Assembly: GCA_964016885.1 (NCBI GenBank)
Contig: OZ024749.1
Span: 47,616,001 to 47,680,000, forward strand
Source: Eledone cirrhosa
Lineage: Eukaryota
Direction: 5' to 3'
Length of the DNA: 64,000 bases
The notes beneath the pieces were generated by a model. The model was not told the origin of the DNA. It saw only the letters and a list, made by a program, of their open reading frames with translations, and did no database searches. Of the stretch, positions 9,130 to 50,061 are shown one piece after another. A program made the position numbers and the translations under genes. How positions within the stretch are numbered: position 1 is the first letter of the stretch; every line of letters begins with the position of its first letter.

Positions 9130-9334
9130 CGTATGTGTGTGTACGTATATATGTATATATATATATATATAATATATTTAGAAACACACAGATACATGCG
9201 AACACACACATATACATGAATGCATCCACACCCAACCGTGAGTTAAAGGGTGCCAACCTCACCGATGTTGCTCAATGAATGACTGGGACAGACCAATCCG
9301 GTTGAACTAGACTGAACCAGTATCAGAGTTAAAA

Positions 9335-9883
9335 ATACATTATGAAGAGAGAAGAAACATTTAGATATAATTAGTAATCAAATGTATCATACCTAAACTG
9401 CTCCTAGATTCTTCGACTACGTAGTTTCGTGGCATAAACAAAAACAATACATCATAAAGATATAGTGTCCTTGCGAGGTCTGCCGACTTATCAAGATGTG
9501 TGACTGCTGGAAAGCTGCCATTACTCATACTTCTCGTCTCCTTCACCACCTCTTCTACGGCTTCGATATAAATACCCCCTCCGCCTCCGTGGTATTTTCT
9601 TCGGGGTTATAAGAGGCTTAGCTCTGTTTCTCGACCGTTATATCGCGTGACTATCTCCCCCTCCGCCTTTTGGGATTCTTTCTCACGTCGTGTAGACGCG
9701 TTCTTGAGGCTAGTAAATGAGGTATCCTCTTGATAAGTCGGCAAACGTCGCAAGGCCTCTATATCTTTATGATGTATTGTTTTTGTTTATGCCACGAAAC
9801 TACGTAGTCGAGGAATCTAGGCTCAGTTTAGGTATGATACATTTTATTACTAATTATATCTAAATGTTTCTTCTCTCTTCATA

Positions 9884-9889
<6 letters not shown>
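9335..9889. mobile_element. Fold-back element with about 162-bp inverted arms
   Basis: 9335-9496 is the reverse complement of 9728-9889; the right end runs into (TA)n. Confidence 0.9.
9725..9814 (+). ncRNA. Type I hammerhead ribozyme with U3:A8 variant core (family C)
   Basis: tcctc TTGATAA gtcggca...tgccac GAAA ctacgtag TC gagga: perfect 5-bp stem I, palindromic stem III, GUC site. Confidence 0.75.
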
Positions 9890-10049: not shown

Positions 10050-10740
10050 CTAATGGACATGGTTATCCGGAACAGGAAGGACAACCGTACGAATGTGCAT
10101 GCGCAGAAACGATCACTTCATACAGGCAATTCTAAAGTCCGTGAGTCAGAAAAGTTTCTAGTTGATATGAACATTAGGATGTTGTTGTAATTCAATCCGG
10201 AGATTTGTAGTTATGTAAGATGTGTTTCCAGACGTGTGGACAACGTGTGAATAATTTGTTTCTCTTGTTTAGGCAATCAATATTGCGTAATCTCTTTGGA
10301 TATTTATTCGTTCATCAATACATAAACCACACGACGGATTGTCCAGTGCGTATGGCTTGGACTTAGTGATGGCTTTACATTGAATGGAGTAGTCTATACT
10401 TGATACCTTGAGTGGCCATACGTGGCTTGCGAGTTTCGTGGATGAACGTCTGTCCGGGTACCCACTATCAACAACAGCAATAAGAAAAGAAAGCGTAACA
10501 ATAGACAAATTATACGGTTCTCTCCACCCTTCTCACTCAACGTTAAAACCAATGTAGGCAAATCATTTCTAGCCCTCTTACATATATCATAAATACCGCT
10601 ACACTATTACATATATCATAAATACCGCTCCATCTTTAACCGACACAAAGTAAAACTAAGATACTCCTGCGCTAAGAACATGAAGGCCCACATCACCAAC
10701 AGCCGTAAAAGCAACACCCCCGCCAGAATGCTCTTGCCGT

Positions 10741-11178
10741 ATGCCTGAAGCTTGCCCCACTCAACAGCAATGCAACACACCCGCTGTAGTTTATGAAGCT
10801 GTGGTCATTTCCAACCAACCAAATCAACCACAGGACGTCAAATCCTATGTGGGTATGGTGGAGGGCCGATTTATGGAATGCTTCATGAACAACCAGTCGA
10901 CCTTTAGGTACCCGGACAGACGTTCATCCACGAAACTCGCGAGCCACGTATGGTCCCTCAATGACTCAAGTATAGTCTACTCCGTTCAATGGAAAGCCAT
11001 CTCTATGTACATGCCATACACATGGGGCAATCCATCGTGTGGAATATGTATTGATGAGCGAATAAATATTCTAAAGAGATTACGCAATAGTGATTGCCTA
11101 AACATGGGATATGAATTCTTCACACGTTGCCCACACGAATCGACACACCTCTTACTTAACTACAAATCTCCGTATTGA
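10741..11178 (+). pseudogene. GIY-YIG endonuclease domain of a Penelope-like element
   Basis: VVY...YVG motif, STKLASHVW, CGIC and CPH; collinear with the 47792-48436 protein. Confidence 0.85.
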
Positions 11179-11541
11179 ATTACAATCAGACGAATACAAC
11201 TTCCAGAATGCCATCAACCGTCGATACTGAGATCGTGCATATCTTTAATGAGATTTGTTCGCTTTTAAACATGAAATAATCCAATGTTTAAACAACGATG
11301 CATTGAAATAATCATATGTATATATATATATTTCATTTCTGAATTTGTTTAGCAAGATTCTTTATCTGAAAAGGTGTGTTGAAACCGATATTGTTATACT
11401 TTGGGAGGGTCATGTTGCCAATAAGAAACACACGCACCAGTTGCTTTCACCTCAATTTATTATAATAAATGTATAAATTTATAAATTTATAAATTTCTGG
11501 TAGGTTGGTTGGTTCCACAACCAGATGGTTGTTTATATATT

Positions 11542-11584
11542 GTCAAAGTTATTTCGTCACACATTTTGTGAACTCTTCAGTGAC
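11542..11584 (-). ncRNA. Minimal hammerhead, family B (core CUGAAGA)
   Basis: Reverse complement: gtca CTGAAGA gttcacaaaatgtgtgac GAAA taac TT tgac. Confidence 0.6.
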
Positions 11585-11734
11585 TGGGGATACTTTTCTT
11601 TGTTTTATGTGCCTCTCCTTTGTTCTCTCCTACGCCATCTTGTTTGTGTGTGTGTATGTGAACACACACACAAAAACAAGATAGCGCAAGACAGAACAAA
11701 GGAGAGGCACAACAAACAAAGAAAATAATCCCCA

Positions 11735-11777
11735 GTCACTGACGAAGTCACACAATGTGTGACGAAAGAACTTTGAC
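11735..11777 (+). ncRNA. Minimal hammerhead, family B (core CUGACGA)
   Basis: gtca CTGACGA a gtcacac aat gtgtgac GAAA gaac TT tgac: 4-bp stem I and 7-bp stem II. Confidence 0.75.
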
Positions 11778-11926
11778 AATATATAAACAATCATCTGGCT
11801 GTGGAACCTACCAACCAACCAGAAATGTATAAATTACTAAATTTATAAATTTATTAAAATACATTGAAGTGAAACAACTGGTACGTGTGTTTCTTATTGG
11901 CAACATGACCCTCCCAAATTATAACA

Positions 11927-15036: not shown

Positions 15037-15420
15037 GGGCGGTGCATTGGCAGTATCGGTAGAGAGTCTGATGTCTGACAAAGAGATATGGCCCTTTATG
15101 ATCTGATTTCAAATCCCACCGAAGTTAACTTTGCCTTTCATTCTTACGGGGTGGATAGAATAAAGTACCATTAATAGCTGGCAATGTGCCAACACGAGAA
15201 AAATGACTATTATTATGATTATTAGTATTTAAGGGCGGTGGATTGGCAGTATCGGTAGAAGGTCGGACGCCATGCTTTGCAGCATAGTTACGTCCATTTA
15301 CGATCTGAGTTCAAATCCCGCCAAGGTTAACTTTGCCTTTCATCCTTACGGGGTCGATAAAATAAAGTACCAGTAATGCACTGGGTAATTGCTGGCCTTG
15401 TGCCTAAAATAGAAACAATT
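15037..15420 (+). mobile_element. Two tandem SINE copies (15037-15203 diverged; 15233-15420 full length)
   Basis: Begin ggcggtg.attggcagtatcgg, contain a B-box-like motif and end in (ATT)n. Confidence 0.9.
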
Positions 15421-15444
15421 ATTATTATTATTATTATTATTATT

Positions 15445-16450
15445 ACAGTTGCATTTATCTTGCTTTATGTTCATACGAGTTATCACCAAGTCACAACCAG
15501 TGACCTCAAGAGACAACAAGGTCCGCCATGTTCAAGAAAGAACATACATACTCACACATGCATCTTTCGTGTTTAGACTTGTGATGTACTTATATTGACA
15601 GAATCTTCCTTAGCATATGGGCAGTTCCCATCAGTACTATCTTTTGTATTTCTCCTATACGCGGGTTTCCTGGGATTTGCGATAAGTAATCATTAGACAC
15701 CTTAGGTATGATTCCCAGAGCACCGACAACCACTGGTATTGTTTTAGTTCTCAATTTCCACATTTTTCTAATTTGTATCTCCAGGTCCTTATACTTGCTC
15801 AATGTTTCAAATGTTTGTATAGATACATTCTTGTCTATTGGAACGGACATATCAATTAGCAGGCATACCCTCTTTTTAAAGTCCTTCAGGATTATATCAG
15901 GTCTATTTGCATCTATTTTTCGGACTGTCTGGATGCTAAAGTTCCACAAGATTCAGATGTGATATTTTTTCCAGTGTGGGAGGTGGTTGATGCTCCCACC
16001 AATTCTTTTGATGGGACCGGTCAAAATGCTTACACATTATCCAATGTATGTATTGTGCAGCTCTATCATGCCTGGTTGGAGCTATAGGACTGCACATTGA
16101 GATTATATGATCGATGGTCTCTGGTTGTTTTTTTACATACACGGCATAATGGGTTGCATCCATTTTTTATTATGTTGGCTGGGTAATTTTTTGTTGGCAG
16201 ACACTGATCTTGTCCTGATATAATTAGTCCTTCAGTCTCCGATTTCAGTCCAGAGGATGCCAACCACTGATGGGTTAAAGTTTTGTCAACATAAAGATTG
16301 TTAGCTGTTTATGGGTATTTTACATACATAGGCTTTTCTTGCCATTTCTTAGCCAGTTTCTGTAGCAGTTCTTTCTTTGCAGTTACTTTTACCTGCTTTC
16401 CTTTTTCTGTGTTTTCCATTTCAGCAGTAAATGTGACTTCTGAAATGTGT
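15445..16450 (-). mobile_element. 5'-truncated R4/Dong-like non-LTR retrotransposon, family A (CCHC finger plus restriction-like endonuclease)
   Basis: ETEGLIISGQDQ, CRVCKK..ETIDHIISMC, NRPDIILKD..LIDMSVP..KY.DL, PVVVGALG, GTAHMLRKIL; frameshifted; (TAA)n at both ends. Confidence 0.9.
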
Positions 16451-34081: not shown

Positions 34082-34082
<1 letters not shown>

Positions 34083-34303
34083 GGAAACCCGCGTATAGGA
34101 GAAATACAAAAGATAGTACTAATGGGAACTGCCCATATACTAAGGAAGATCCTGTCAATATAAGTACATCACAAGTCTAAACACTAAGGATGCATGTGTG
34201 AATATGTGTGTTCTTTCTTGAACATGGCGGACCTTGTTGTCTCTTGAGGTCACTGGTTGTGACTTGGTGATAACTCGTATAAACATAAAGCAAGATAAAT
34301 GCA

Positions 34304-34305
<2 letters not shown>
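34082..34305 (+). mobile_element. R4/Dong family A 3' stub
   Basis: GNPRIGEIQKIVLMGTAHILRKILSI* plus 3'UTR; (TAA)n on both sides. Confidence 0.9.
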
Positions 34306-34366
<61 letters not shown>

Positions 34367-34370
34367 AAGA

Positions 34371-35284
34371 AGAAATGGCAAGAAAAGCCTCTGTATGGAA
34401 AATACCCAGAGCGAGCTAACAATCCTGATGTTGACAAAACTTTAACCCATCAGTGGTTGGCATCCTCTGCACTGAAATCGGAGACTGAAGGACTGATTAT
34501 ATCGGCACAAGATCAGTGTCTGCCAACAAAAAATTACCAAGCCAACATAATAAAAGATGGGTGCAGCCCATTATGCCGTGTATGCAAAAAACAACCAGAG
34601 ACCATTGACCATATAATTTCAATGTGCAGTCCTATAGCTCCAACCGAATACCTAAAAAGGCATGCCAGAGCTGCACAACACATACATTGGATAATGTGTA
34701 AGCATTTTGACATGCCCCATCAAAAGAATTGGTGGGAGCATCAGCCACCTCTCATACTTGAAAAAGATCACATCTCAATCTTGTGGAACTTTAGCATCCA
34801 AACAGACCGAAAAATAGATGCAAACATACCTGATATAATATTGAAAGACTTTCAAAAGAGGGTATGCCTGCTAATTGATATGTCTGTTCCAATAGACAAG
34901 AATGTATCCATAAAAAACATTTGAAAAATTGAGCAAGTATATGGACCTGGAGATAGAAATTTGAAAAATGTGGAAATTGAGAACTAAAACAATACCAGTG
35001 GTTGTAGGCGCTCTGGGAATGATACCTAAGGGGTCTAATGATTACTTATCGCAAATCCCAGGAAACCTGCGTATAGGAGAAATACAAACGATATTACAAA
35101 TGAGAACTGCCCATATACTAAGGAAGATTCTGTCAATATAAGTACATCACAGGTCTAAACACTAAAGATGCATGTGTGAATATGTATGTTCTTTCTTGAA
35201 CATGGCGGACCTTGTTGTCTCTTGAGGTCACTGGTTGTGACTTGGTGATAACTCGTATGAACATAAAGCAAGAGAAATGCAACT

Positions 35285-35287
<3 letters not shown>
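34371..35287 (+). mobile_element. R4/Dong family A, 5'-truncated
   Basis: ORF 34457-34924 has a CCHC finger (CRVC..HIISMC) and a PD..D endonuclease motif; frameshift near 34920; (TAA)n tail. Confidence 0.92.
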
Positions 35288-35333
<46 letters not shown>

Positions 35334-35342
35334 AAATAATAA

Positions 35343-38300
35343 ATGATAAATAATAAACTAAATACTGCTGGTGCCGGAGGAAGAAGAAGGAAAGGGACCA
35401 GAACCAAATGGACGAAAGAATTGAATATAACTGTTATGCAATGTTACCTGAAGAGTAACCCCAAGGAAAAAGGCTATAGGAAACGGATGCATAACATCTG
35501 GAACGAGATTGGTCTATTTAAATTAGATGAATAAAAATTGGCCGGATAAGCGAGCTGGAACTGGAGGAACTGAGCAGAGAGATTGGGTAGGAAATGGAGA
35601 GTGGAGTATGTCAGGCAAATGAGCCAGTGGGAAATGAAGGTGAAGAGGTTGAGAGAACGGAGGAACCATCCGAAGCAGACAATGATCTGAATGCTGAAAT
35701 AAATATATACCTGGAACAAAGATACGGCCATTGAGGAGATGAATGCTGACGGGCTAGGCCAAGATTTGGTTGATATCCTAAACTTAGTGGTAGATGAAAT
35801 TAACAATGATAGTGGGAAACCTATGAACCTAATATTTGTAGACAGGGAAAAGTTAAAAGAAACAACAGCTAAGGTAAGCAAAGTCATCCCATACCTTGAG
35901 GCGAGGAGCCTTCACCAGTGCAACAATATCCTCAAAGCAACAGCAATTGCGGTGAGGAAATTACTTGGCATAAAAGCGAGAGGAAACAACAAAGAAGAAA
36001 GATCAGAACATGGGTGGAAGAAACGACTGAATGATCAAATCAGGGAAATGAGAAATGACATTGGAAAGCTTGAGTTCCTACTGAATGAGACACTAAAACA
36101 CATAGACACTAAAAATGGACTGGAAATAAAGTACAAAACTAGGAGGAAAAGGCTAAATATTACCATAGAGGAACTGAAGCAACGCATTGTAGCAAAGAGT
36201 GAAAACATTAGGCGATACGAGAGCAGAGTCAGTCAGTATAGACAGAACCGCATATCTGACAACAACCAGATCTTGTTTGGACAGCTTGAAGGGAAAGAAA
36301 GAAGCAACGACTTCATCCCTGAGGCGGAACAAACTAAGACATTCTGGAGAGGAATATGGGAGCAGGATGTTAAACATAATAACCAGGCAGTGTGGATTGA
36401 GACAGTACAAAAGGAGATTAGTGAACAGGCACACCAACAAACTGATTTGAGTATCAGAGTTGAAACTCTCAAGGGGCGGGCAAAAAGACTAACCAACTGG
36501 AAATCACCAGGCCCAGATGGGGTGCAGGGGTATTGGATTACAAATGTTAACATCCCTCCACCCAAACTGACAACCATGTTCAATGACTCCTTGATGTCAG
36601 GTGAGGTACCAGAGTGGTTGACAAAAAGGTACCACAGTTCTGGTATGAAAGACCGAATCAAGGGTAATGATGTTACCAACTATAGACCTATCACATGTCT
36701 GGCCGTAATGTGGAAACTGTTGACAAGCATTGTGTCTGAGGAAATCTACCATCACCTCCACACAAACAACTTGTTCCCGGACGAACAGAAAGGATGCCGA
36801 AAGAGGTCCCGTGGTACAAAGGACCAATTACTTATTGATAAGATGGTAATGAGGAATTGCAAGAGGAGACACACTGGTCTTGCCATGGGATGGATATACT
36901 ACAAAAAGGCATTTGACATAGTGCGTCATTCTTGGATCACCAAAACCTAGAGATCTTCAAGGTGGCAGATAACACCAAACAGTTATTGAGCAAAATTATG
37001 AAGTCCTGGAAAACAGAGTTAACATCAGCTGGAGAATCCTTGGGAGGCGTGAAGATCAAGAGAGGTATCTTCCATGGAGATAGTCTGTCCCCTCTGTTGT
37101 TTGTCCTTGCCCTGATGCCCCTGACCATTATACTGCGAAAAGTGAGAGCAGGATACAAGTTGGGAAAGGGAGAGCTTACCATCAATCACCTCCTCTGCAT
37201 GCACGATCTTAAGCTCTTCGGGAAGAGTGAGAAGGAGTTGGATATGATTGTTGACACTGTTCGTATTTTCAGCAATGATATATGTATGCAATTTGGTATT
37301 AGTAAGTGTGGAGTCCTTGTGATGAAGAGGGGTAAATTGAGCAGAAGCAACGGAATCCAGGTACCAACAGGTGATAGGATAAAGGAAATTGACACTGAAG
37401 AAAGATACACACATGTTGGTGTTCTGGAGGCAGATGACATCAAGAACAAAAGAAATGAAGGAATTGGTAAGATCTTAGTACATTAGGAGAGTAAGGAGCG
37501 TATTAACATCACATCTAAAAAGTAGGAATGTCATAAGTGCAGTGAATTCCCGAGCTGTGTCTATTATTAGGTACAGTGCGGGAATTCTGAAATGGAATGT
37601 TACTGAACAAAAAGAAATGGATAGGAAGAATAGGAAGCTATTGACTATATACAACATGTTCCACAAGAGGAGTGATGTCGATAGACACTACTTAAAGAGA
37701 TCTGAAGGTAGAAGAGCTCTTATCAGCATAGAGGAATGTGTTCAGATGGAGAAAAGCAACCTGTACACATACGTGACTGACAGTAGGGAGACAATGCTTA
37801 ACATTGTACTGAAGGAGAAGGCAATAGAATAGGTGATGTCCAAGGTGGATATAACAAGAGCAACCTTCTTGAAAAATCCCTTCATAGTACCTTCTATAAC
37901 AAAACTGAATTTAGAGGTCCACAGACATGGAACTGGTTAAAAAAGAGGATACCCTAAAAGGAATGATAATGGCTGCGCAAGAGCAGGCCCTCAGAACGGA
38001 GTGGGTGAAACACCATATTTACAAGGAGGAGGCTAGCCCACTGTGTAGGATCTGTGGAGAGAGAGAGGAGACTGTGGCTCACATTGTATCCGTGTGTAAA
38101 CACCTAGCCCAGACACACTATAAAGGCTGGAGACACGATGTGATGGGCAGGGTGATCCACTGGCCCCTATGAAAAGTAAACAATTTACCACATTCTGAGA
38201 CGTCGTATGAGCATAAACCAGAGTCGGTGATAGAAAACGATTAGGTAAAGTTGCTATGGGATTTTAGGATACAGACGGACAATAAATTAGAACATAATAG

Positions 38301-45235: not shown

Positions 45236-45312
<77 letters not shown>

Positions 45313-45318
<6 letters not shown>

Positions 45319-46769
45319 ATTAAATAAATGGAAACTATATTTATAAAACCATATTTATTTCATTATATATATTTCAGGGATATCATATTAACAATATGCT
45401 ATGCCTTCCTCAGACAAAATAAAATATAAACAGTTTTATAGATAAATAGATTCGACATACCGTAACAACATCGACTTGTATTTGAAAAGGTTGATTTGGC
45501 AGTGAAAAAATTGTACACAGAGAGAAAGAAAGAGAGAAAAAAAGAGAGAAAAAAGGAAAGAAAGACAGAAAACGAAGAAAAAGAAGAAAAAGAAGAAATG
45601 CATGGAACAAAATAGAGAGATGGAAAGATCGATAAAGAGAAGAACTTCATGTAAAGAAACAGAGAGATATATATATATATATATATAGAGAGAGAGGAAA
45701 TAGAGATAGATACATATATATAGAAAACTAGGTAGTGGGACGTCTGTTGGGTAAACGTATCAATGATACATTTATTTATTTATTTATTTATTTAGCTCTA
45801 GTATTAATGTAAGGGAGATATATGGAGAGAAACCAGCAGTATATATATAGAGAAAAAATATAGAGAGAGAAAAAAATATAGAGAGAGAAAAAATTTAAAA
45901 ATACCAGACATAGGCAAGGCGTAAAAACCCTATGTTTTAATGTAGAGGTATTAGTATTTATAAAAACCAGCCACTATATTGTAAATATCAGTATTCCGGA
46001 ATGAGACATGTATCCATAATGTGTGAAAATTAATGATCTTATGTTTAGTTTTTTAAAAAAATTCATATGTTTATGTGATAACTACAAACATCTATGTGAA
46101 TTTACATGATCAACTCTGCAAACCCTAACTTCACGGAAAAGATTCTCATTGTGGTATAAACATTTAAGTATACATATATGTGTATATATATACACACAAA
46201 TATATATAGAGTCAATATTACTATTCCTGTCTTTACTCTACAAGATTATCTATCAAGCAGAAATAGAGAGCAGATTTCAATATACTAATAAAAATATATA
46301 TCAGAAACAAAACTAAAAAATAACAATAATAATAATAAGTAATAATAAAATAGAAAACTAAAAAAATATTACGAAAGAATATTACATATTAAAAATATTA
46401 CATATTAAAAAATTTACATATTAAAAATATTAAAAATAAAAATATTATAAAATACTACAATAATAAAAATAAAAATAAAAATAAACCACAAAGATCAACC
46501 CTTCAAAATTAATTGACAATATATTGCCAAGTTCATTATAAGCATCAGAGTCGAAAAACAGATAAAGCCAAAAATTATCTATCAAATCGCATCTAGCAAA
46601 GATCATTTCAAAAAGTTTAGGATGCCCATTTGGTCTACATGTGTTCTTATATTTAATATAGAAGTTTATCTAGTGTAACGTTTATTCGAAATATTTGGAG
46701 CATCAACTTTTAGGGTAGCTTAATTTTTCATGAAGAGTGTTTAAATAAAAATAAAATAAAAATAAAAAG
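45313..46769 (-). repeat. Left (inverted, tail-less) pseudo-LTR, about 1.46 kb
   Basis: Near-identical reverse complement of 48504-49974 with scattered substitutions. Confidence 0.95.
45356..45421 (-). ncRNA. Hammerhead, family A (left pseudo-LTR)
   Basis: Reverse complement of 49866-49931. Confidence 0.75.
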
Positions 46770-46800
46770 TTAGATTGATCTAGATTGATCTAGATCTAGA

Positions 46801-48436
46801 TTGCCAGTTAGATTGATCGCACCATCAAAATCGGACCTGGGCAAATTAAGCAAAAACATTCTTGACAGGGTGATACAGCAAATTAAGAACTTGGATTGTT
46901 TATCTAACCTGAGCTTGTGGAAGGGAACTGGAGAGGTTGTTGAGTGGTTTAAGCAAATTAAATATAACAATAATAATAAGTTTATTCAACTTGATATAGC
47001 TAACTATTATTCTTCTATTACCCCTAATCTACTAAATAAGGCACTAAATTACGCATTCAAACATACTGACCTAACTAGCAATGAAATGCATATTATATTA
47101 TCGGCTAGGAAAACTTTGATAGAATTTAATGACCAACTATGGACCAGAGCAGATAGAGATAGCAATTTTGACATTACTATGGGATCATCCGACTCAGCTC
47201 AGGTAACTGACCTTGTGGGCTTATTTTTAATCAATTCGCTACATAGGAAAATACCTGGTACTACCGGAGGTTTATATAGAGATGACATGCTTTTACTTAT
47301 TGATAATAATAACTCTGAACTAAATAGAAAATGTAAACAAATTACACAATTTTTTAATTACTTTAATCTTAAAATAGAAATTGAGAACAACCATAGAATA
47401 GTCAATTTCCTAGATATAACATTAAATCTCAAAACATGTCTTCACTATCCTTTTCACAAGTTGAATGAAAACTTAAACTATGTCAACTTTAACTCTAACC
47501 ACCCCAGATCTGTCAAAAACACTATAGTAAACTCTGTTCAAAAACGTATCTCTAGGATCTCGTCGAATAGAAAGATTTTCGACGAAAAAGCCCAATACTA
47601 CAATGAAGCATTAGCTAGAGCAGGATATGCTGATAAGATTGTGTACATAGATAATGATAGACAAACTAAACAAAATAACAACTATTGTAATTACGGCAAC
47701 AACCTTAACAACTATAATAGAAAGCATTACAATAATTCCAAAGGCCAAAAAAGAAATAGAACTAGGAACATAATTTGGTTCGCCCCCCCCTTTCTCACTA
47801 AACATTAAAACCCACATCGCTAAACTATTTTTTAAAGCTCTTGATAATCGCTTCCCTAGAACACATAGGTATCACTCAATTTTCAATAGACATACAATAA
47901 AATTAACCTACTCATCCACCAAAAATTTAGCACAAAATATTAATAGAATAAATAATAGGAACTTAAAACCTAGTGATAATAGCATAAATAATATCCAAGT
48001 TAACAAATGTAACTGTAGAGATAGATCTAAATGTCCGTTAAATAACAACTGCTTAGTTAAAAATATAGTATACAATTGTAATGTTAATACTGACTCTAAT
48101 TCTTTTAACTACGTCGGTTCCACATCGACGGAATTTAAACTTCGCTATAATAACCACAAGAATTCTTTCACAGATCCAAGCAAAAAATCCTCAACGGCAC
48201 TATCAGGCGTACTCTGGCAACTTAAGCTAGATAACGTTAGATATTCGACGGCTTGGAATATAGTCTCAAGAGGGATTCCTTTTAATTCATCCTCTGAGAC
48301 ATGTGACCTCTGCGCAGAGGAGATATTCTTTATACTAAAATCTAAAAATTCCCTTAATCTACGGACAAATTTATTCAGTTGCTGCAAACATAGATTAAAC
48401 TCAACGTTTAAATATAAATTTAAATTTAAAATGTAG
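46801..48436 (+). pseudogene. PLE reverse transcriptase-GIY-YIG polyprotein, N-terminally truncated, one +1 frameshift in the C8 run at 47783-47790
   Basis: RLIAPSKSDLGK, FIQLDIANYYSSI, TMGSSDSAQVTDLVG, GLYRDDML, NFLDITL. Removing one C gives WFAPPFSLNIKT...IFNRHTIKLTYS...CNCRDRSKCPLNNNC..IVY...YVGSTSTEFKLRYNNH...CDLC...CCKH, stop at 48434-48436. Confidence 0.93.
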
Positions 48437-48503
48437 TATATTTAGCTTGATTTATAATTATATGGGAAACTAGCCGATAAATCTTTGATTCCTTCTTTTT
48501 ATT

Positions 48504-50061
48504 CTTTTTATTTTTATTTTATTTTTATTTAAACATTCTTCATGAAAAATTAAGCTACCCTAAACGTTGATGCTCCAAATATTTCGAATAAACGTTACAC
48601 TAGATAAACTTCTATATTAAATATAAGAACACATGTAGACCAAATGGGCATCCTAAACTTTTTGAAATGATCTTTGCTAGATGCGATTTGATAGATAATT
48701 TTTGGCTTTATCTGTTTTTCGACTCTGATGCTTATAATGAACTTGGCAATATGTTGTCAATTAATTTTGAAGGGTTGATCTTTGTGGTTTATTTATATTT
48801 TTATTTTTATTTTTATTATTGTAGTATTTTCTAATATTTTTATTTTTAATATTTTTAATATGTAAATTTTTTAATATGTAATATTTTTAATATGTAATAT
48901 TCTTTCGTAATATTTTTTAATTTTCTATTTTATTATTACTTATTATTATTATTGTTATTTTTTAGTTTTGTTTCTGATATATGTTTTTATTAGTATATTG
49001 AAATCTGCTCTCTATTTCTGCTTGATAGATAATCTTGTAGAGTAAAGACAGGAATAGTAATATTGACTCTATATATATTTGTGTGTATATATATACACAT
49101 ATATGTATACTTAAATTGTTATACCACAATGAGAATGTTTTCCGTGAACTTAGGGTTTGCAGAGTTGATCATGTAAATTCACATAGATGTTTGTAGTTAT
49201 CACATAAACATATGAATTTTTTTAAAAAACTAAACATAAGATCATTAATTTTCACACATTATGGATACATGTCTCATTCAGGAATACTGATATTTACAAT
49301 ATAGTGGCTGGTTTTTATAAATACTAATACCTCTACATTAAAACATAGGGTTTTTACGCCTTGCCTATGTCTGGTATTTTTAAATTTTTTCTCTCTCTAT
49401 ATTTTTTTCTCTCTATATATTTTTTCTCTCTCTATATAACAGCTGGTTTCTCTCCATATATCTCCCTTACATTAATACTAGAGCTAAATAAATAAATAAA
49501 TAAATAAATGTATCATTGATACGTTTACCCAACAGACGTCCCACTACCTAGTTTTCTATATATATGTATCTATCTCTATTTCCTCTCTCTCTCTATATAT
49601 ATATATATATATCTGTTTCTTTACATGAAGTTCTTCTCTTTATCTATCTTTCCATCTCTCTATTTTGTTCCATGCATTTCTTCTTTTTCTTCTTTTTCTT
49701 CGTTTTCTGTCTTTCTTTCATTTTTTCTCTCTTTTTTTCTCTCTTTTTTTCTCTCTTTCTTTCTCTCTGTGTACAATTTTTTCACTGCCAAATCAACCTT
49801 TTCAAATACAAGTCGATGTTGTTACGGTATGTCGAATCTATTTATCTATAAAACTGTTTATATTGTATTTTGTCTGAGGAAGGCATAGCATATTGTTAAT
49901 ATGATATCCCTGAAATATATATAATGAAATAAATATGGTTTTATAAATATAGTTTCCATTTATTTAATATTGTAAATATACTCCAAATACTTGTCAAGTG
50001 CTTTTATATCAGTTATAAATATTTACTAGTTGTAACCCAACAATTTAAATATAACTTTCCA
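48504..50061 (+). repeat. Right pseudo-LTR/3'UTR with tail
   Basis: Partner of the left arm; the last 87 nt or so are unique to this arm. Confidence 0.95.
49866..49931 (+). ncRNA. Type I hammerhead, family A (core CUGAGGA), in the PLE 3' pseudo-LTR, sense to the RT
   Basis: tattttgt CTGAGGA agg c ata g catatt gtt aatatg a tat c cct GAAA tatata TA atgaaata. Confidence 0.78.

Follow-up and report, generated by a model that had tools for sequence, protein, structure and literature searches.

A predicted U3:A8 hammerhead in Eledone cirrhosa belongs to an abundant 593-nt repeat family of the non-LTR retrozyme type

A stretch of 64,000 nucleotides from the genome of Eledone cirrhosa (contig OZ024749.1, positions 47,616,001 to 47,680,000; hereafter the window) contains a hammerhead-like motif in which the core pair C3:G8 is replaced by U3:A8. 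The first-pass annotation of this DNA regarded the core as rare and took changes at exactly the two paired positions as an argument for selection on catalysis, with local decay of an ordinary core as the alternative. We asked whether the motif is a credible ribozyme, whether its core is fixed among its relatives in the genome, and whether such fixation speaks for selection.

The motif has the features of a type I hammerhead, namely an N3-UGA-N7-N8-A core, GAAA (9796-9799), an NUH triplet, and three helices with the open end at helix I, and the Watson-Crick pairing of positions 3 and 8 is achieved via U3:A8. Stem I consists of TCCTC (9725-9729) paired with GAGGA (9810-9814), and the strands of stem II are GT(C)GGCA (9737-9743) and TGCCAC (9790-9795), with one bulged C. 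The stems and GUC that the first-pass annotation had seen in the right arm are thus all present (Table 1). The full descriptor matched once in the window and never in 100 order-2 Markov simulations of 59.6 kb each, and backwards-pattern controls for the family's hammerhead gave 0 matches across the genome. A search of Rfam returned no hammerhead for the window motif at the gathering score or at E<=10; because Rfam at the gathering score also missed canonical hammerheads in three other loci, we consider this test insensitive. Locally, a competing monomer fold is 1.1 kcal/mol more stable than the hammerhead fold, and the latter lies 5.7-7.5 kcal/mol above the minimum free energy (MFE) when the 390-nt arm or the whole 593-nt unit is folded. 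For stem III the calculated folding energy is -14.3 kcal/mol as a dimer duplex, versus +0.8 kcal/mol as a monomer hairpin. The RNA with the U3:A8 core is likely to be self-cutting.

Table 1. Features of the retrozyme insertion, in window coordinates (u, position in the 593-nt unit).
Feature	Position	Strand	Evidence or remark
Single insertion of the 593-nt retrozyme family: inverted 5' arm and forward arm, (TA)n on both sides	9171..9889		BLAST of natural unit from L029
Inverted arm: u512-593, then u1-243; ends at fixed end B, 163 nt past end A (long "tail")	9171..9496	-	
Second hammerhead copy, same core; stem I cut short and mutated (2 bp)	9410..9496	-	Likely inactive
Forward arm: u283-593, then u1-80; ends at fixed end A	9500..9889	+	~98% identical to unit
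TATAAATA, then C-rich (GC-box-like) runs; possible internal promoter	9567..9574	+	Not invariant between subfamilies
Type I hammerhead, secondary structure complete	9725..9814	+	Hammerhead fold 1.1 kcal/mol above local MFE
Core U3-U4-G5-A6-U7-A8-A9 (TTGATAA), U3:A8 replacing C3:G8	9730..9736	+	5,941/5,964 genomic copies
Stem II: G10.1-C11.1 first, bulged C, closed by a 46-nt insert forming a long hairpin	9737..9795	+	
Stem III: 10-nt palindrome ACTACGTAGT; 3 bp and tetraloop as monomer, 10 bp as dimer	9799..9808	+	
Predicted cleavage site after GUC (C17 = 9809)	9809..9810	+	Hammerhead consensus
Splice-donor-like site AG|GTATGA, 22 nt past the cut site	9831..9832	+	Apparently used by another copy on contig C22

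A BLAST search with the natural unit, which we number from the first base after the predicted cut (u1), extended the element to the left of the fold-back originally reported at 9335-9889, so that the insertion begins at 9171. Its two arms are identical at 154 of 162 positions. The TTGATAA that had been noted in both arms does recur on the minus strand of the left arm (9494-9488), but this recurrence is no evidence of selection, because the fold-back is a Penelope-type 5' inversion in which both arms were copied from one unit in one insertion, and the arms are therefore not independent. Stem I of the left-arm copy has only 2 pairs, since its 5' strand is interrupted by the inversion junction and its 3' strand has A in place of one G, and this hammerhead is likely inactive. 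We ruled out a reading of the fold-back as a MITE, as arm lengths vary from copy to copy. With only one complete hammerhead, and with both arms expected to pair in any read-through RNA, the window copy is probably a dead end. That TATAAATA and the C-rich runs following it act as an internal promoter is speculation.

The motif is one of thousands in this genome, which is 3.0 Gb in size and rich in (TA)n. A 24-nt pattern had 5,964 exact matches genome-wide (control 0), and the hammerheads of the whole family number 6,327 (control 0). The family forms head-to-tail arrays with a period of 591-595 nt and one type I hammerhead per unit, reaching 5 hammerheads per arm among the places listed. The unit is non-coding, the longest ATG-initiated ORF measuring 24-75 codons when the units of two subfamilies are read in tandem, and no ORF for a reverse transcriptase or GIY-YIG endonuclease was found within the unit or joined to the copies at 82 mapped loci. 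These loci, a small part of the ~6,300 hammerheads, comprise 58 of L001-L060 (two duplicates dropped) and 24 of L098-L121; L061-L097 were left out as loci of Penelope-like elements (PLEs) or a duplicate. An old subfamily, 79% identical, retains the hammerhead core and stems.

The mapped copies share a restricted set of layouts. A TA run lies within 20 nt on at least one side in 79 of 82 non-edge insertions, and the insertions display 5' truncation, partial tandem repetition, an inverted 5' copy and a tail at one end only, which is Penelope-like anatomy. Direct insertions end at A (~u80) or at B (~u243), 163 nt apart, in 33 of 34 cases, a count biased by the choice of loci with queries that end at A or B. 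The pairing of ends is free of this bias: 42 of 48 inverted insertions have one A and one B end, while two are B/B, four have another end and none is A/A. When two duplicates are removed, the A/B class stands at 40 of 46, and 40 of 42 against a coin toss gives p=2e-10. We conclude that this is a young family of the non-LTR retrozyme type, likely spreading with Penelope-like enzymes.

The core is nearly invariant across these copies. TTGATAA is kept in 5,941 of the 5,964, as the first-pass annotation had proposed to check, and C3:G8 occurs in 0, which disposes of the suggestion that most copies carry CTGATGA and that the window copy has decayed locally. Fixation alone does not argue for selection. 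Position 7 of the hammerhead is free to vary, and copies differ at this position in 8 cases; the corresponding counts are 11 for position 3 (Fisher p 0.65) and 12 for position 8 (p 0.50). Because the free position is equally fixed, fixation reflects descent from one source. Nor did two patterns find a C3G8 member of the 593-nt family anywhere in the genome (0 matches), and with no such relative the family's own switch at positions 3 and 8 has not been observed.

Better evidence comes from older and wider comparisons. Among six aligned copies of the old subfamily, 1 of 42 ribozyme columns differs, versus 113 of 469 others (p=2e-4, or p=0.003 without the 11 anchor columns). Between subfamilies the stem pairs are either invariant or altered on one side only, and because 0 of 27 predicted stem pairs within the family show a double-sided change, we describe the stems as conserved rather than covarying. 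The hairpin of the 46-nt insert is likewise kept across subfamilies through one-sided changes, with no double-sided change. A stem III variant in run X4 was considered as covariation and rejected, because the genome contains just 2 copies of it, each belonging to a different subfamily.

A Watson-Crick pair between positions 3 and 8 matters for hammerhead catalysis, and we counted the four core types over the whole genome with one descriptor: U3A8 21,025, C3G8 10,102, C3A8 383 and U3G8 339, with backwards controls of 650, 684, 211 and 226, respectively. The pair is thus kept in 97.7% of descriptor matches. The ratio of approximately 2:1 between U3A8 and C3G8 is valid for this descriptor alone, since a match requires C11.1 together with a short stem III, some canonical families go undetected, and the tally is of copies, not of events. 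Even so limited, these counts do not agree with the description of the core as rare, and the variant had already been published. A change at both positions can be seen in other repeats: a 309-bp CUGAUGA tandem family is homologous to a 316-bp UUGAUAA family outside the ribozyme (score 136 vs <=51 in 300 shuffles), which, from these alignments, makes the pair a real C3G8/U3A8 double change between relatives outside the 593-nt family. The claim that the paired changes point to selection on catalysis gains no support from the young copies, in which position 7 is equally fixed, but selection on the core is supported by sequence comparisons of three kinds: the old subfamily, the 309-bp and 316-bp homologues, and the genome-wide core counts.

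Several of these other families deserve description. Among the first 100 of the 21,025 U3A8 matches we recognized at least four U3A8 families besides the 593-nt one, some with a weak stem I. Most of those 100 belong to a very abundant family with core UUGAAAA, 4-bp stems and CCGG in stem III (L122-L127, L140, L141), which often occurs as inverted pairs beside (TA)n. The 309-bp C3G8 repeats (L041:6400-9100) and the 316-bp U3A8 repeats (L132:1400-3100) lie in tandem in (TA)n, and the array at L041 also contains an inversion. A canonical CUGAUGA hammerhead occurs in a tandem repeat of 466-469 bp, which forms arrays of more than 30 units, also with terminal inversions (L093:6825-7800; G000:C1:5738326-5752444).

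Autonomous PLEs are present in the same genome. The most abundant neighbouring PLE has 51,412 candidates and 4,130-bp tandem units (L091-L096; G000:C7:28553785 onward), with ORFs of 1,100-1,470 aa and ends 45-60 nt apart in (TA)n; its reverse transcriptase and GIY-YIG motifs were read by eye, and Pfam found no family in its 1,204-aa ORF. We rejected this PLE as the partner of the retrozyme, since its hammerhead-like motif is a different one (CUGACGA), its ends differ, and it shares no homology with the 593-nt unit. For three further retrozyme families, homology did not rise above shuffles, and neither among them nor in the abundant PLE was an autonomous partner homologous to the unit found. 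At another locus (L133), an ORF that weakly matches reverse transcriptase (E 0.003) and GIY-YIG (E 0.0003) is followed downstream by a U3A8 motif. The window itself contains nested long inverted repeats at 45307-49980 around broken ORFs (46789-48433), 85% identical to the L133 PLE, and from this sequence similarity we read the region as a Penelope-like insertion with an inverted 5' copy. At 10684-11874 there is a degenerate ORF that to the eye resembles a GIY-YIG endonuclease end but has no Pfam match; the right arm of the 211-nt fold-back that follows it includes a hammerhead-like motif (CUGACGA...GAAA) and terminates in (TA)n. LINE-like reverse transcriptase fragments occur on opposite strands at 15231-16350 and 34082-37483, as long inverted pairs.

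We also wish to highlight what sequencing runs suggest about transcription. No run is on record as RNA, and the types of the two runs used here, X4 and X5, are not on record. Run X4 yields a 1,396-nt contig (depth 182) that joins 40 nt of the element (u576-593, u1-22), ending at AG|GTATGA, to foreign sequence. The foreign part, at one time a candidate for the parent element, proved to be a host exon: it has a single genomic place on contig C22, with 1 mismatch in 30 nt, directly after a TTTTCTAG acceptor. A retrozyme copy on the same strand (G000:C22:8275624-8276268) lies 3,690 nt upstream of this exon, which begins at 8279896 (L145, L144); the copy differs from the reference at 3 of the 40 joined nucleotides, the same three as the X4 contig. 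It also has a variant unique in the genome, which accounts for the end point of the contig (31-letter words). The downstream exon holds a single-exon 363-aa ORF of the Anp1 family (E 1.5e-52). From one contig of one run we infer a spliced RNA with a 3,690-nt GT-AG intron that runs uncut through a single U3:A8 hammerhead; such an RNA implies that one C22 copy is transcribed in sense, and it is possible that this copy has been recruited as the 5' exon or promoter of the Anp1-family gene. The uncut RNA fits poor cleavage as a monomer, yet it would show survivors only. Among the papers listed by a weak literature search, none had a title pointing to retrozyme splicing to host genes. Run X5, from another organism, when compared with L029:1500-1760 gives a 621-nt contig (591+30; depth 7.8) that closes on itself at one unit, as either a circle or a tandem array would. 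Contigs from two other organisms have the core without difference.

The core variant has precedents. Perreault et al. (2011, PMC3088659), in the part dealing with rare variants, list "several" natural U3-A8 hammerheads and state that they are active in vitro; the covariation of positions 3 and 8 is the same as here, whereas U3A8 in our genome, under the one descriptor, is about twice as frequent as C3G8. In PLE hammerheads, Cervera and De la Pena (2014, PMC4209133) report ~1,300 U3-A8 matches in Schistosoma mansoni, and a literature search by variant name returned both names together only in that paper. The PLE hammerheads described there share with the window motif the U3-A8 covariation, a palindromic helix III, opposite-strand copies 100-700 bp apart and, in Drosophila virilis, a bulge in helix II; as described, they differ in having a shorter helix III than the 10-nt palindrome found here, an extra nucleotide between A9 and G10.1, and residence in elements with ORFs, where ours is in an ORF-less unit. 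A review states that PLE hammerheads cleave as dimers (PMC6765202). Because the core variant is already known, the finding as originally posed adds an example.

The family as a whole resembles non-LTR retrozymes in the accounts of PMC7229834 and the preprint 10.64898/2026.07.22.740005: non-coding tandems with one type I hammerhead per unit, in thousands of copies from monomers to multimers, together with co-occurring PLEs. Relative to the retrozymes presented in those sources, the U3:A8 core, the 46-nt stem II insert and the two fixed 3' ends are particular to this family. Its 591-595-nt unit is longer than those of retrozymes from invertebrates, for which ~170-400 nt is reported (Cervera and De la Pena 2020, PMC7229834), and is within the 51-972 bp given for animals at large (Li et al., preprint 10.64898/2026.07.22.740005). 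Circular retrozyme RNAs have been demonstrated for coral, mussel and axolotl (PMC7229834). For frog retrozymes, only 1 of 9 predicted dimers was reported to cleave in vitro (preprint 10.64898/2026.07.22.740005), which tells against easy cleavage. PLE insertions as described by Craig et al. (2021, PMC8557442) show the same 5' truncation, partial tandems, inverted 5' copy and one-ended tail, and their (TA)n or AT-rich targets (PMC8557442; PMC11167929) match the (TA)n targets here. Frangieh et al. (2024, PMC11167929) account for the layout of PLE insertions by reverse transcription that begins at two internal sites. Set against the PLEs of these two papers (PMC8557442; PMC11167929), our family has a tail of ~163 nt rather than 30-40 nt, and a unit without the reverse transcriptase/endonuclease ORF. 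We class the family as a new example of non-LTR retrozymes that carries an already published core variant.

On the basis of the observed structure, copy number and layouts, the two fixed 3' ends, the (TA)n targets, a ribozyme conserved from subfamily to subfamily and the presence of PLEs in the genome, we propose, with a probability of roughly 0.8, that the U3:A8 hammerhead cuts multimers of the 593-nt repeat, which are copied back by borrowed Penelope-like enzymes. Two hammerheads of a multimeric transcript would pair through the palindromic stem III; cleavage would follow C9809 (GUC), best as a dimer; and the unit-length RNAs would circularise, giving putative circular intermediates. A PLE reverse transcriptase and GIY-YIG endonuclease, borrowed in trans, would return the unit RNA to the genome, the PLE protein nicking a (TA)n target and reverse transcription presumably starting at u80 and u243, one on each target strand. 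A two-site start of this kind would give direct, tandem or inverted insertions, including the inverted one in the window. On this view U3:A8 would represent an exchange of the tertiary pair 3-8 that is tolerated and has been inherited.

Cleavage could be dispensable if the repeat were a Penelope-derived non-autonomous element copied from uncleaved multimers, with the hammerhead as a slow or protein-dependent folded signal. In the experiments reported for PAc, mutating the hammerhead left in vitro insertion unaffected, and the ribozyme depended on protein (PMC11167929). Three of our own observations point the same way, in that the genomic ends at u80 and u243 are away from the cut site, the spliced X4 contig spans that site uncut, and competing folds are more stable than the hammerhead fold. 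We nevertheless consider copying without cleavage quite unlikely, given that the core and stems are fixed while the flanks diverge by 21%, and that nearly all descriptor matches keep the Watson-Crick pair on which catalysis depends. Much less probable still is that U3:A8 is a decayed ribozyme in a founder amplified as DNA, as a satellite or MITE-like fold-back, without selection on catalysis. The AT-rich genome favours C-to-T and G-to-A change, and among young copies position 7 is as strongly fixed as positions 3 and 8; against this, old subfamilies keep the motif, at least five families have U3A8 with mismatched cores near control level, reverse transcription is indicated by the 5' truncations, the fixed 3' ends and the inversions, and the variable length of the inverted arm means that the arms are not terminal inverted repeats. 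The least probable of the alternatives makes the 593-nt unit the pseudo-LTR (pLTR) of an autonomous PLE whose ORF-bearing copies were unsampled; the anatomy is identical to that of pLTRs, and a published model, as set out in the preprint, derives retrozymes from them (10.64898/2026.07.22.740005), yet the 82 mapped loci continue upstream into unit, inversion or flank, with none joined to an ORF.

Beyond the preferred reading of cleaved multimers and borrowed enzymes, three aspects are less ordinary: U3:A8 is abundant in this genome, the long tail comes with a strict A/B rule, and one copy apparently serves as a host 5' exon. A tentative proposal, which we think doubtful, would join them: the U3:A8 majority core may be a damped ribozyme that cuts only in arrays and leaves single copies free as promoters or spliced first exons, and the A/B rule with the 163-nt tail may reflect asymmetric two-site Penelope priming. 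If the latter were true, it would be easy to test with a small RNA of the 593-nt unit.

As the first-pass annotation had foreseen, a search for CUGANGA misses the 593-nt family, whose core is UUGAUAA, and in this genome the motifs overlooked by hammerhead censuses based on that consensus would number more than 27,000. The family is young, with ~6,000 copies, and its two fixed ends and unusually long tail make it a compact substrate for studying double priming by Penelope-like elements. Should a host 5' exon with an intact ribozyme prove to be what the C22 copy provides, one could ask directly whether such ribozymes tune the mRNA levels of the host.
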